A stretch of 64,000 nt of DNA from Escherichia coli (lineage in GTDB: Bacteria; Pseudomonadota; Gammaproteobacteria; Enterobacterales; Enterobacteriaceae), in assembly GCF_048403405.1 (NCBI RefSeq), contig NZ_CP183129.1; one strand, given 5' to 3'. Below are positions 24,001 through 33,000 of the stretch, piece by piece. Made by a program: the position numbers. How positions within the stretch are numbered: position 1 is the first letter of the stretch; the number at the start of each line of letters is the position of its first letter.

Positions 24001-27000
24001 GTTGTGCCACATCCAGCGGCAGAGTAATTGATTCACACCCTGCCAGTAAGCAGTCCAGCGCCTGACGCGGGGTTTTGAAACTCGCGGCTAACACTTTCGC
24101 CTGCGGCGCATGCATTTTCAATAACTGGTGTAAGTCGGTCACAGTCTGAATACCGCTACCGCCCTGAGCATCAATACGATTAACGTAAGGCGCAACATAT
24201 TCCGCACCTGCCAGCGCCGACAGTAGCCCTTGTGCTGCGCCATATACCGCGGTTCCCAGCGTCGGAATCCCTTCCGCTTTTAACATCTTAATAGCTGCCA
24301 GCCCCTCAGCGGTCACCGGAACTTTCACCACGATATCCGCAATAATAGAACGCAATTTACGTGCGTCATTCACCATCCCTTCAGCAGTGGTAGCCATTAC
24401 CTGGGCAAACAGACGCCCCTGACCGCCCATCGCCTCGTGAAGTTGCGGAAGCACAACCTCCAGCGGTTTTTTACCCGCTGCGATAATGCTTGGGTTAGTG
24501 GTTACACCCGCCAGCGGAAAAATACGTGACAGCGCCTTCACCGCAACAACGTCTGAAGTATCCAGATACAGTTCCATAACCATCCTCAAAATGTACTTTT
24601 TGTCTGAATGTAGACTATCACGGGAAAACTCTCTGAACAGTTGACGCACATCAATCCAGCTTTCATTCGAAAGTATTTTAATGTTTGAACGAAACAGAGA
24701 GGCAACTATGATTTTCAATATTCAACGCTACTCGACCCATGATGGCCCCGGTATCCGCACGGTCGTATTTCTTAAAGGCTGTTCGCTGGGCTGCCGCTGG
24801 TGTCAGAACCCGGAAAGCCGCGCCCGCACGCAGGATCTGTTGTATGACGCACGACTGTGTCTGGAAGGCTGCGAGCTGTGCGCTAAGGCCGCGCCGGACG
24901 TGATTGAGCGCGCGTTGAATGGTTTGCTTATTCATCGGGAAAAGTTAACCCCGGAGCATCTGACGGCGCTAACCGACTGCTGCCCGACACAGGCGTTAAC
25001 CGTGTGTGGTGAAGTGAAAAGCGTTGAGGAGATCATGGCGACCGTTTTGCGCGATAAACCGTTTTACGATCGCAGCGGCGGCGGCTTAACGCTTTCTGGC
25101 GGTGAACCCTTTATGCAGCCGGAAATGGCGATGGCGCTTCTGCAAGCCAGCCACGAGGCAGGCATTCATACTGCGGTAGAAACCTGCCTGCATGTGCCGT
25201 GGAAATATATCGCCCCTTCTCTGCCCTATATCGATCTGTTTCTTGCCGATTTAAAACACGTTGCCGACGCACCGTTTAAACAGTGGACCGACGGTAACGC
25301 CGCCAGGGTGCTGGATAATCTGAAAAAACTCGCTGCGGCGGGGAAAAAAATCATCATCCGCGTACCGCTGATTCAGGGCTTTAACGCCGACGAAACCTCT
25401 GTGAAAGCCATTACCGATTTTGCCGCCGACGAGCTGCACGTTGGCGAAATCCATTTCCTGCCCTACCACACGCTGGGCATCAACAAATATCACTTACTTA
25501 ATCTGCCCTATGACGCCCCGGAACAACCGCTTGATGCGCCAGAACTGCTCGACTTTGCCCAGCAGTATGCCTGCCAGAAAGGGTTAACCGCGACCTTACG
25601 AGGATAACAACCATGACCACACTGAAACTGGACACGCTCAGCGACCGCATTAAAGCGCACAAAAATGCGCTGGTGCATATTGTGAAACCGCCGGTCTGTA
25701 CCGAGCGCGCGCAGCACTATACCGAGATGTATCAACAACATCTCGATAAGCCGATCCCGGTACGTCGCGCGCTGGCACTGGCGCATCACCTGGCGAATCG
25801 CACCATCTGGATCAAGCACGATGAGTTGATCATTGGCAACCAGGCAAGCGAAGTTCGCGCCGCGCCGATCTTCCCGGAATATACTGTCTCGTGGATCGAA
25901 AAAGAGATTGATGATCTGGCAGATCGTCCCGGTGCTGGCTTTGCGGTGAGCGAAGAGAACAAACGCGTTCTGCATGAAGTGTGCCCGTGGTGGCGCGGTC
26001 AGACCGTACAGGATCGCTGCTACGGCATGTTTACCGATGAGCAAAAAGGTCTGCTGGCGACCGGCATCATTAAAGCGGAAGGCAATATGACCTCCGGCGA
26101 TGCGCACCTGGCGGTCAATTTCCCGCTGCTGCTGGAAAAAGGGCTTGATGGTCTGCGCGAGAAAGTAGCGGAACGTCGCTCGCGCATCAACCTGACGGTG
26201 CTGGAAGATTTACATGGCGAGCAATTCCTGAAAGCGATTGATATCGTGCTGGTAGCGGTCAGTGAACACATTGAACGTTTCGCTGCCCTGGCGCGTGAAA
26301 TGGCCGCGACCGAAACTCGCGAAAGCCGTCGCGATGAGCTGCTGGCGATAGCAGAAAACTGCGATCTTATCGCCCACCAACCGCCGCAGACTTTCTGGCA
26401 GGCGCTGCAACTGTGTTACTTCATCCAGTTGATTTTGCAGATCGAATCTAACGGTCACTCCGTATCTTTTGGTCGTATGGACCAGTATCTGTACCCGTAT
26501 TATCGTCGCGACGTTGAACTCAACCAGACGCTGGATCGTGAACACGCCATCGAGATGCTGCATAGCTGCTGGCTGAAATTGCTGGAAGTGAACAAGATCC
26601 GCTCCGGCTCGCACTCAAAAGCCTCTGCGGGAAGTCCGCTGTATCAGAACGTCACTATTGGCGGGCAAAATCTGGTTGATGGTCAACCAATGGACGCGGT
26701 GAATCCCCTCTCTTACGCGATCCTTGAATCCTGCGGTCGCCTGCGTTCCACTCAGCCTAACCTCAGCGTGCGTTACCACGCGGGAATGAGCAACGATTTC
26801 CTCGACGCCTGCGTACAGGTGATCCGGTGCGGCTTCGGGATGCCGGCGTTCAACAACGACGAAATCGTCATCCCGGAATTTATTAAACTCGGTATTGAAC
26901 CGCAGGACGCTTACGACTATGCAGCGATTGGTTGTATCGAAACCGCCGTCGGTGGCAAATGGGGCTATCGCTGTACCGGCATGAGCTTTATCAACTTCGC

Positions 27001-30000: not shown

Positions 30001-33000
30001 CCTGAAGCCATGGCGTACGTACTGTTACGTCCGCTGCTTGATGATGTGCCGGAGGATGAACTGTGCGGCGTAGCGCCCGGAAGAGTATTGCCGGTATCAG
30101 AGCAATGGCATCCACTGTTAATTGAGGCGTTAACCAGCATTCCAAAACTCGAAGCCGGAGACTCCGTCTGGTGGCACTGCGACGTCATCCATTCCGTTGC
30201 CCCCGTTGAAAATCAACAGGGTTGGGGCAACGTGATGTACATTCCTGCGGCACCGATGTGCGAGAAAAATCTTGCCTACGCGCACAAGGTGAAGGCCGCA
30301 CTGGAAAAAGGCGCATCGCCGGGCGACTTCCCGCGCGAGGACTATGAAACAAACTGGGAAGGACGCTTTACGCTTGCCGACCTCAACATTCACGGTAAGC
30401 GAGCGTTGGGAATCGACAGCTGAGTGTCGTACAGCCCTTCCCGTTCCACGGCGGTGTTCCCTTTTCCTGGGCGAACCCGCCGCACTGACTCCCGCACCGC
30501 CAATCGTCCGTGCAGCAGCAGCGAGCCCACCGGAGCATCCGGGCGAATCAGCCGCTGTTGCAACATTTGCACCGCTTCATTGCCTAGCTCATCGCGTGGC
30601 ACATGCACAGCCGTCAGGGGAACATCCTCGATTGCCGCAAGGTTAAAGCCGTCGATACTCATCACCGAGACATCCTGTGGTACGCGCAGACCACGACGAT
30701 GTAGCGCATTTACCGTTCCCGCCGCCATAAAATCCCCGCCGACCAGAAACGCCGTCGGCAACGTCTTGCCATTGGCGGCATCCAGCCACGCTCCGACCTT
30801 TTCTTCCGCTTCTTTAGCGCTAAAACTGCTGATATTCAGCAAATGACGGTCATGGTGAAAGGCCAGATTATGCTGACGCCATGATTCTTTAATCCCTGCA
30901 AACCGCTGCTCCATAGTGTAGCGGCGCAGGCACATCACATTCATCACCTCCCGGTGACCCATTTCAAACAGATAGCGGGCGGCGAACGCGCCAATTAACC
31001 GATGGTCCGGCGCAATCGCCGGGAGGCGCATTCGTTCATCACGGCAGTTGATCAGCACACAAGGCTTAGCGAGATCGGCGGCCAGATCATGGATGTGCGG
31101 ATCGTCAATCCCCAGCAGGATCGCCGCCTGCGTATCTGCTTCATTCATCCGCGAGAGAAATAGCGCGGGATCGCTGTCAAACTCCTCCAGCGCGCAGTAA
31201 CGCAGCCGCACTTCATGCGGCGATAACGCTTTGCTGATGCTCTGGATCACACGGTAATAAAAGATATCAGATCGTTGGTCAAAAGCGCGTTGCGGCGCGA
31301 AAATAATCAGGTTATTCAGCAACATACGACCTGCTGCCATGCCATCCATCACGCCCAACTCACGCGCGCAGGCCAGCACCTGTTCGCGAGCGCGTGCACT
31401 GGTATTCGCTTTGCCAGCCAGCACCCGCGAAACCGTACTCGGCGATAGCCCGGTACGTGCGGCGATATCGGCGATTTTCAGCTTCTTGTCCATTTTGTGA
31501 TCTGCCTCTAATTCGGAAATGACAGAATTTTCATGAGCAAAAAAGCCCATTCTGTCTGGCATTAAATCCATTTCAGTAATGTATATCAGTCACTCATGGA
31601 AAAACGTGCACAAAACCCGCTTTCTTTCGCTTTTAGGGTCTCTTACTGTGAATTGGTAGAACAACTTCCATACAAAAATAATGGAAAAATGAACAATAAA
31701 GACTTTATTTATCAAAAAGTTAAAAGTGGTGTGACAACTCCATTCTGACGTTGCCGCACAAACCCTATACCATTCTGTGGAGTGCATATGAGTCAGGGTA
31801 TCAATAACGATATGACTGCCAGTAAACCGCGCCATATCGTCAAAAATCTGCGTTGGTGGATACTGGTCCTTTTTTTGCTCGGTGTTACTGTCAACTACAT
31901 CACGCGTAACTCGCTGGGTATTCTCGCCCCCGAACTGAAAAGCAGCCTGGGGATTACCACCGAACAATATTCCTGGATTGTAGGTGCTTTCCAGCTCGCC
32001 TATACCCTATTCCAACCGTTGTGTGGATGGCTGATTGACGTCATTGGCCTCAAACTGGGCTTTATGATCTGCGCGGGACTGTGGGCGCTGGCCTGTCTGA
32101 TGCATGCGGGGGCGGGAAACTGGGTACATCTGGCGCTGTTGCGCTTCTTTATGGGCGGTGCGGAAGCCGCGGCAACCCCAGCAAACGCCAAAACCATCGG
32201 TGAATGGTTTCCAAAATCAGAACGCCCGATCGCCGCAGGCTGGGCAGGCGTCGGTTTTTCCATCGGTGCCATGCTGGCCCCACCGATTATCTATTTTGCC
32301 CACGCTTCATTCGGCTGGCAGGGTGCATTTATGTTCACTGGCATCCTGGCGATGCTGTGGGTGGTGCTGTGGTGGGCGTTCTATCACAACCCGGATAAGC
32401 ATCCTAACCTCAGCAAAGCCGAACTGGACTTTATCCGCCAGGATAACGAAGCGCCCCCTGTCAAGTTACCCTTTCTGACCGCACTGAAAACCGTAGGCAA
32501 AAATAAACGCTTTTACGGTATCGCTATCCCGGCCTTTATGGCAGAACCGGCGTGGGCGGTGATGAGTTTCTGGGTTCCGCTATACCTGTCCAAAACCTAT
32601 GGCATGGACCTGAAGCAGATCGCATTATTCGCCTGGTTGCCGTTCCTCGCCGCTGATCTTGGCAGTATTGCCAGCGGCTATCTGACCAAACTTTACACCC
32701 GCCTGTTTGGGCTGAGTCGTGTGAACTCCGTTGTCGCATCATCGGTCAGTGGCGCATTCCTGATGGTTTCGCTGGCGGTGATGGCCTTTACCAATAACCC
32801 GTATATCGCCATCGTCCTTATTTCCATCGGCGGCTTCGGTCACCAGATCATCTCCTGCATGCTGAGCGCACTGGTGGTGGAATCCTTCGACAAAGGTCAG
32901 ATGGCCACTGTTAACGGCATGCGCGGTTCTGCCGCGTGGATCGCAAGTTTCCTGTTCTCCCTGATTATCGGGGTTACCGCTGACAAAATCGGCTTTAACC

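Follow-up and report, generated by a model that had tools for sequence, protein, structure and literature searches.

A run of Escherichia coli genes from fsaA to ybiU, analysed here within a 64-kb window (the whole stretch of DNA examined, along which positions are counted), very probably constitutes the 1,5-anhydroglucitol (AG) catabolic unit of the species, and the glycoside hydrolase family 31 (GH31) cassette that adjoins it a separate module. The original prediction had described a co-oriented cluster, ybiY-ybiW-ybiV-ybiU at 24708-30423, encoding a radical-SAM activase, a glycyl radical enzyme, a sugar phosphatase and a DUF1479 protein, and these positions, orientations and identities were borne out by open reading frames (ORFs), RefSeq annotation and domain matches alike. 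It had also regarded the substrate of the glycyl radical enzyme as unassigned, with a sugar-derived compound as a guess. The guess was sound, whereas the description as unassigned is outdated, as YbiW is now documented to cleave 1,5-anhydroglucitol-6-phosphate (AG6P) (PMC12441222; PDB 8id7/8yjn). The system is already known, the substrate of YbiW having been resolved in 2024, and the new content offered here is modest, consisting of the definition of an operator and its regulon. Beyond the operator, it extends to a cassette that is probably independent and uronate-related and to a testable idea for YbiU.

With respect to the central enzyme, YbiW of the window is, as predicted by orthology to the characterised K-12 protein, the C–O-cleaving enzyme that acts on AG6P. 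Specifically, the two proteins share 99.5% identity (4 substitutions in 810 aa), and the window protein gives full-length matches of 1855 bits to PDB 8id7/8yjn, both named YbiW, and 1409 bits against TIGR01774 (cutoff 678). The C-terminal RVAGYSAFF reported previously is present at residues 783-791, with RVAGY at 783-787 containing G786, and the Cys loop GCIE (residues 440-443) contains C441. The activase YbiY, whose gene ends 5 nt before the start of ybiW, scores 369 bits against the glycyl-radical activase family TIGR02494 (cutoff 174), and carries a CX3CX2C motif (CSLGCRWC, residues 25-32), with a further group of clustered Cys residues at 51-58. The nucleophile motif DxDGT of YbiV is likewise present, as DMDGT at residue 9. 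All proteins of the unit are 99.0-99.8% identical to their K-12 orthologues, and the ORF calls agreed with the RefSeq annotation of E. coli TUM14771, a 100% identical genome; the 13.3 kb round the cluster is 100% identical to TUM14771 and several other strains.

The gene order across the region is moeA, moeB, fsaA (minus strand), ybiY, ybiW, ybiV, ybiU, a LacI-family gene (minus strand), a major facilitator superfamily (MFS) transporter gene, the GH31 gene and ybiT (minus strand). In K-12, the 'anhydroglycolysis' pathway of ybiY-ybiW and fsaA is encoded by the same genes in the same order, with the same three operator sites, and the comparison reveals no difference in the ybi genes; the sole difference is that a 5.2-kb cassette occupies the place of a 251-bp spacer of repetitive extragenic palindromic (REP) type between ybiU and ybiT. 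The unit is larger than first described, as the divergent fsaA is also a member of it together with ybiY-ybiU.

The substrate assignment draws on published work with the K-12 proteins. AG and 1,5-anhydromannitol are phosphorylated by a phosphotransferase system (PTS) (PMC12441222), after which YbiW cleaves AG6P and its paralogue PflD cleaves 1,5-anhydromannitol-6-phosphate (AM6P), both yielding 1-deoxyfructose-6-phosphate (DF6P); E. coli and many gut bacteria are thereby able to grow anaerobically on AG (PMC12441222, citing Ma et al. JACS 2024 146:26187). PflD/PflC (PDB 8yjo) performs the same type of reaction to the same product on the epimeric substrate, but is encoded at another locus outside the window and reaches 492 bits against YbiW, where the YbiW entries reach 1855. 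The nearest solved relatives with other substrates are the B12-independent glycerol dehydratase and further PFL2-type enzymes (PDB 1r8w, 5i2a; E 6e-164), which have the G-C-x-E Cys loop and the RVxG glycyl motif in common with YbiW. Whereas the PFL2-type glycerol dehydratases dehydrate small diols, YbiW opens the pyranose-like ring ether of a sugar phosphate.

Evidence that ties the remaining genes to this pathway comes from a repeated operator. Three exact copies of the 12-mer TTTCATTCGAAA are present in the 64 kb, at 24661 (+), 28109 (+) and 29129 (-), where simple arithmetic would lead one to expect about 0.01 exact matches, and no further copy appears at one mismatch. The three copies sit in the divergent region between fsaA and ybiY, in the ybiW-ybiV spacer and in the ybiV-ybiU spacer; with its flanks the 12-mer reads ACTTTC-N4-GAAAGT, and K-12 has the identical three sites. 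The operator is found exactly or with one mismatch upstream of both ybiY and ybiU in about 40 species, and upstream of ybiV in most of them, in genera that include Citrobacter, Salmonella, Enterobacter, Klebsiella, Kosakonia, Kluyvera and Pluralibacter. The copy at ybiV has constant outer arms, and its central 4 nt are found in either orientation depending on the species, as expected of a palindromic operator.

In terms of transcription, an intrinsic terminator 3' of ybiV and a hairpin 3' of ybiW divide the genes into three units, ybiYW, ybiV and ybiU, which therefore do not form a single operon even though all four lie on the plus strand. A generic scan for sigma-70 promoters over this DNA performed no better than on shuffled sequences, and our statements on promoters rest for this reason on cross-species conservation. 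The FNR-like box upstream of ybiY is the sole match to TTGAY-N4-RTCAA in the 64 kb, is kept in 14 of the 15 genera aligned, and is found at the ybiY promoter only, among the three plus-strand promoters.

Published data on the DeoR-type regulator YciT of K-12 bear on the same promoters. Gao et al. (2021; PMC8464067) reported ChIP-exo peaks, which lie near two of the operator sites, for ybiY/fsaA and for ybiV; the supplement lists no YciT peak for the ybiW-ybiV site. The genes most up-regulated by RNA-seq in a delta-yciT strain are ybiY, ybiU, ybiW, ybiV and fsaA, with log2 fold changes of +7.7, +7.0, +3.5, +2.2 and +1.8, respectively, and a baseMean of 6489 for ybiU (PMC8464067). Because they share the operator and are derepressed in delta-yciT cells, ybiV and ybiU very probably belong to the regulon of the radical enzyme and are more than mere neighbours of it. 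No ybi operator was found at two or fewer mismatches near ompX and ybiO, the other reported YciT targets in the window, nor was one found near yciT itself.

In the scheme that we favour, AG is taken up and phosphorylated by the PTS to give AG6P, the ring of which YbiW opens through radical C–O cleavage to DF6P, both steps as published for K-12. YbiY would install the radical on Gly786 of YbiW, with Cys441 as the probable thiyl radical site, as family membership and sequence motifs suggest. FsaA is reported by Ma and colleagues to split DF6P into glyceraldehyde-3-phosphate and hydroxyacetone, the latter then being reduced by GldA; such a role as downstream aldolase fits with the position of fsaA, which lies next to ybiY and diverges from it. 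By removing phosphate from AG6P or DF6P, YbiV may serve as a safety valve. YbiU would have an O2-dependent function within the same regulon, and control would be exerted by YciT, which would bind ACTTTC-N4-GAAAGT and come off the DNA in response to AG6P or another, related sugar phosphate.

The part of YbiU in this scheme is hypothetical. The protein shows an H-x-D...H pattern (a putative metal triad), with HTD at residues 203-205 and later His residues, of the kind seen in Fe(II)/2-oxoglutarate (2OG) oxygenases, and its homologues give faint matches to PhyH, a family of Fe/2OG dioxygenases. Structures of YbiU are available (PDB 2dbi, 2dbn, 2csg), and a fungal relative is named GlcNAc-inducible gene 2. 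A homologue search with YbiU returned near-identical Enterobacter proteins only and was uninformative; among seven distant DUF1479 representatives the contexts are mixed, two lying in sugar ABC-transporter clusters and the others being uninformative, which provides a hint only. The two cases are bacterial homologues on metagenome contigs (L087 and L088, with homologues P0129 and P0131), in which the genes lie inside CUT1 sugar ABC-transporter clusters in the company of SDR dehydrogenases, Dak1/Dak2, an SGL lactonase, an ILVD/EDD (sugar-acid) dehydratase and a 2-keto-3-deoxy-6-phosphogluconate (KDPG)-type aldolase; these surroundings hint at a DUF1479 family that acts early on an imported sugar-like compound. 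Our literature search found no functional study of YbiU/DUF1479. A gap-filling guess of 2012 that placed YbiU in thymidylate (dTMP) synthesis was dismissed, given its BLAST E value of 1.6.

We put forward, as a doubtful but testable proposal, that the AG regulon has in YbiU, and with it in YbiV, a functional component so far unrecognised, and that YbiU is an O2-dependent enzyme resembling the Fe(II)/2OG oxygenases. The gene has the same operator as ybiYW at a promoter that lacks the FNR-like box, and its expression in aerobic delta-yciT cells is far above that of ybiY or ybiW (PMC8464067). Because ybiU is in these ways co-repressed with the O2-sensitive YbiW, free of the FNR-like box and very highly expressed in air once YciT is removed, the data suggest that YbiU could serve as an aerobic or protective (detoxification) branch for AG or AG6P. 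Speculatively, hydroxylation by YbiU of C1, next to the ring oxygen, might convert AG6P directly to glucose-6-phosphate, and YbiV may act as a phosphatase valve that dephosphorylates excess AG6P.

Turning to the adjoining cassette, it had been reported to abut the ybi cluster directly, and this is accurate: the LacI-family gene overlaps the 3' end of ybiU by 34 nt. The possible functional link that this adjacency had suggested found no support, as the two systems have no operator in common, are transcribed convergently and occur independently of one another in both directions. The LacI-family gene is convergent with ybiU, and the MFS and GH31 genes are read from a divergent promoter region of their own, which carries conserved palindromes of the type ATGAnAAnnTTTnCA. 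No ybi operator lies within the cassette in the 64-kb window or in the cassettes of about 40 species, and no cassette operator was found in the ybi promoters. In the LacI-MFS spacer of Buttiauxella, two loci that lack ybi genes do have one-mismatch matches to the ybi 12-mer (L054:8483, L059:8482); these are probably a coincidence of similar half-sites, because they overlap the cassette's own ATGAAAA half-site.

The occurrence of the cassette, which the original prediction had proposed to compare with that of ybiYW, likewise gives the link no support. Among 5,426 complete E. coli genomes, 5,425 have the ybi genes and 577 (10.6%) the cassette, which is always chromosomal, present in single copy and 98.1-100% identical, so that 4,849 genomes (~89%) have ybiYW without it. 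We further compared 80 loci of other species with a 75-91% identical GH31 gene, classified by the flank examined. As in the window, ybiW adjoins the cassette in 35; a shortened locus with ybiU/ybiV still visible accounts for 6, and ybiU with or without ybiV, but without ybiW, for 2. The cassette is flanked by moeB and ybiT, ybi genes being absent, in 18 (Buttiauxella, Cedecea, Atlantibacter, Mangrovibacter, Dryocola and others), is divergent from uxuA-(uxuB)-uxaC-uxuR in 8 (Pantoea, Erwinia) and has other contexts in 6 (Serratia, Hafnia, Enterobacillus and one Citrobacter), the remaining 5 being too short to judge. This gives 32 of the 80 loci with no ybi gene in the flank examined. In most species examined, the cassette is found at a syntenic position, with the ybi/moeB side on one flank and ybiT on the other, and because its contexts vary across E. 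coli and the 80 other species, its adjacency to the ybi genes in the window is inherited synteny at a variable locus and not a functional operon.

As to what the cassette does, the reading that we favour, at about even odds, is that it imports and hydrolyses an anionic alpha-glycoside to yield glucuronate. The MFS transporter is a member of the anion:cation symporter (ACS; sugar-acid) family, and its full-length match to ExuT shows 43% identity (E 4e-120). In all 8 of the Pantoea and Erwinia loci (L045, L049, L058, L062, L065, L066, L072, L075), MFS-GH31 stands back to back with the glucuronate genes and the repressor gene uxuR, the family matches being above curated cutoffs. Moreover, the third conserved box of the cassette, upstream of the MFS gene, is a candidate UxuR-type site and resembles AATTGGTnnACCAATT. 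Its copies differ from this sequence at 0-1 positions in Hafnia, Serratia, Enterobacillus and Erwinia, at 0-3 in Pantoea and at 2 in E. coli, where it is the only match at two or fewer mismatches in the 64 kb; the promoter regions of gntP-uxuA and uxuR in K-12 also have the box with 2 mismatches. In these respects (ExuT-like transporter, candidate UxuR-type box, uxu adjacency in Pantoea/Erwinia) the cassette resembles the hexuronate and glucuronide systems (exuT, uxaC, uxuAB, UxuR/ExuR; uidABC), from which it differs in having a GH31 (alpha-retaining) enzyme in place of a GH2 beta-glucuronidase, and its own LacI-family repressor.

The GH31 enzyme retains both catalytic Asp motifs, WNDNNE and W(S/T)GDN. 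In the -1 subsite the usual D-I-(D/E) is replaced by S-S-G, a change that is invariant in 81 of 81 orthologues, and we know of no characterised GH31 enzyme with this variant or this specificity. The protein matches glucosidase II over the catalytic domain with E 1e-40 and the alpha-1,4-glucan lyase 2x2h with E 1.7e-13 (136 residues matched), and it has Ser (LSSGY) where lyases have Asn and hydrolases Ile (LDIEH/QDIGW). With the lyase ranking low and Ser at this position, the enzyme does not resemble an alpha-1,4-glucan lyase. Enterobacter asburiae JDR-1 is reported to ferment methylglucuronoxylose, a possible lead to the substrate.

Three other explanations of the region deserve consideration. 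The cassette might feed the glycyl-radical pathway, for example by releasing or making the anhydro-sugar substrate; GH31 enzymes can form 1,5-anhydrofructose, the precursor of 1,5-AG. That the cassette adjoins ybiU both in the window and in 35 or more species would agree with this, and both GH31 lyases and side reactions of GH31 hydrolases do make 1,5-anhydrofructose (PMC12441222). We nonetheless regard it as extremely unlikely: ybiU and the LacI-family gene are convergent and overlap, the promoters and operators of the cassette are separate and include no ybi operator, 89% of E. coli genomes have ybiYW with no cassette, and 32 species have the cassette without adjoining ybi genes, 8 of them beside uxuA/uxuB/uxaC/uxuR. 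The transporter, too, is of an anion (sugar-acid) family, whereas AG is neutral and enters by the PTS, and the enzyme is much nearer to glucosidase II than to a lyase and has Ser at the Asn/Ile position. A less distant, though still improbable, alternative is that YbiV and YbiU are bystanders and that only ybiYW and fsaA serve the AG pathway. The pathway as published reportedly needs only YbiW/YbiY, FsaA and GldA, and YbiV has been described as a broad sugar phosphatase; in addition, a Siccibacter locus (L038) and one Citrobacter amalonaticus locus (L019) have ybiU with or without ybiV and no adjoining ybiW. What speaks against bystanders is that the same exact operator stands before both genes in about 40 species, and that in delta-yciT cells ybiU ranks second in derepression, with ybiV derepressed as well.

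The third explanation concerns the cassette alone, which might, as its annotation implies, simply serve the use of a neutral alpha-glucoside through an ordinary alpha-glucosidase, with no link to uronates. This is possible, if on balance unlikely. It would account well for the best solved relatives of the enzyme (glucosidase II, MalA and FjDex31A) and for the intact catalytic Asp motifs, and the uneven quality of the UxuR-type box would be no surprise. It accounts less well for a transporter that is a paralogue of ExuT in a sugar-acid family, for the placement of the cassette beside a complete glucuronate operon in Pantoea and Erwinia, and for the invariant replacement of D-I-(D/E) by S-S-G. 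Certain observations also weigh against our preferred reading of a YciT-controlled AG unit beside an independent, uronate-related cassette. The YciT peaks, at 858455-858488 and 862873-862900 (NC_000913.2), lie ~100-150 bp off the 12-mer sites after a +777 version shift (PMC8464067), and because of this offset we can only infer that YciT binds this exact sequence. The UxuR-type box has 2 mismatches in E. coli and is weak there, and it is degenerate in Enterobacter and Citrobacter; nor, to our knowledge, is any GH31 alpha-glucuronidase known. Finally, the cassette adjoins ybiU in at least 35 species, and synteny of such long standing, taken by itself, leaves room for a loose physiological connection.

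The coordinates of all features are collected in the table below. In K-12, the REP/BIME-like (bacterial interspersed mosaic element) spacer of 251 bp (L082:5557-5796) stands in place of the 5,237-bp cassette (window 30417-35653). The break points fall 7 nt before the ybiU stop and ~7 nt inside the 3' end of ybiT. As a result, YbiU and YbiT each end in different residues in the two forms. We rejected the idea that the cassette is a mobile element, as it has no terminal direct or inverted repeats, insertion sequence, integrase or tRNA gene, never occurs on plasmids and is always in single copy. The cassette LacI and MFS proteins of E. coli are nearer to those of Kluyvera (89-94% aa identity) than to those of Citrobacter (73-90%) or Salmonella diarizonae (84-89%) (L014, L021, L041, L077), an order that is reversed for ybiW, ybiU and ybiT on the flanks; the cassette may have recombined or been transferred, or rates of evolution may have been uneven. 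Translation of the LacI-family gene probably begins 19 codons downstream of its annotated start (31550), as the conserved helix-turn-helix region begins with MDKKLKIADIA at an ATG near 31493, just as it does in the Serratia and Enterobacillus orthologues; a start near 31493 would place the conserved palindrome ATGACAGAATTTTCAT (31519-31534) in the promoter region, outside the coding sequence. No Rfam family reached threshold within 23000-38000.

Table. Genes and sequence elements of the ybi unit and the adjoining cassette (positions in the 64-kb window; E values refer to the family or structure named)
Feature	Position	Strand	Remarks
fsaA	23915-24577	-	divergent from ybiY; NF009296 E 8.5e-137 and TAL_FSA; 99.1% identical to K-12 FsaA
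FNR-like box TTGACGCACATCAA (TTGAC-N4-ATCAA)	24641-24654	+	upstream of ybiY; putative function
Operator 1 GCTTTCATTCGAAAGT	24659-24674	+	between FNR-like box and -10-like TTTAAT of ybiY promoter
ybiY, radical-SAM activase of glycyl radical enzyme	24708-25607	+	TIGR02494 E 1.2e-110; 99.0% identical to K-12
ybiW, glycyl radical enzyme	25613-28045	+	PFL-like E 3.5e-209; Gly_radical E 1.6e-32
GC-rich hairpin (AGCCCGGCG...CGCCGGGCT)	28053-28077	+	past ybiW stop; no T tract; read from the sequence, not called by the terminator scan
Operator 2 ACTTTCATTCGAAATA	28107-28122	+	upstream of ybiV
CRP-like box TGTGC-N6-TCACA	28128-28143	+	ybiV promoter region; 14 genera; assigned solely by resemblance to the consensus
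ybiV, Cof-type HAD-IIB sugar phosphatase	28191-29006	+	Hydrolase_3 E 1.2e-53; TIGR00099; PDB 1rlm/2hf2 E 3e-179
Strong intrinsic terminator	29014-29034	+	3' of ybiV; 8-bp stem with 6 GC pairs, then TTTCCCTTCT; terminator scan
Operator 3 (12-mer on minus strand)	29127-29142	-	16-31 nt upstream of ybiU start codon
ybiU, DUF1479/Gig2-like protein	29158-30423	+	PF07350 (Gig2-like, formerly DUF1479) E 3.3e-154
LacI-family regulator	30390-31550	-	not part of ybi system
Cassette operators (ATGAnAAnnTTTnCA-type palindromes)	31519-31534, 31596-31611		conserved
Third conserved cassette box	31651-31666		upstream of MFS gene
ExuT-like ACS-family MFS transporter	31788-33089	+	not part of ybi system
GH31 glycosidase	33104-35467	+	not part of ybi system
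ybiT	35647-37242	-	far flank of cassette

In terms of its wider meaning, a glycyl radical enzyme of unknown substrate, the headline under which this region was first presented, opens nothing new as stated. The operator, which is precisely defined and conserved across genera, links ybiV and ybiU with the pathway and makes the YciT regulon directly testable, and the variable GH31 cassette resembles a glucuronide-type utilisation module with an unusual active-site variant. AG6P is a toxic metabolite in human neutropenia, namely that of glycogen storage disease (GSD) Ib and G6PC3 deficiency. The co-repression of an oxygenase-like YbiU with an O2-sensitive enzyme suggests how enterobacteria might handle AG6P in air.

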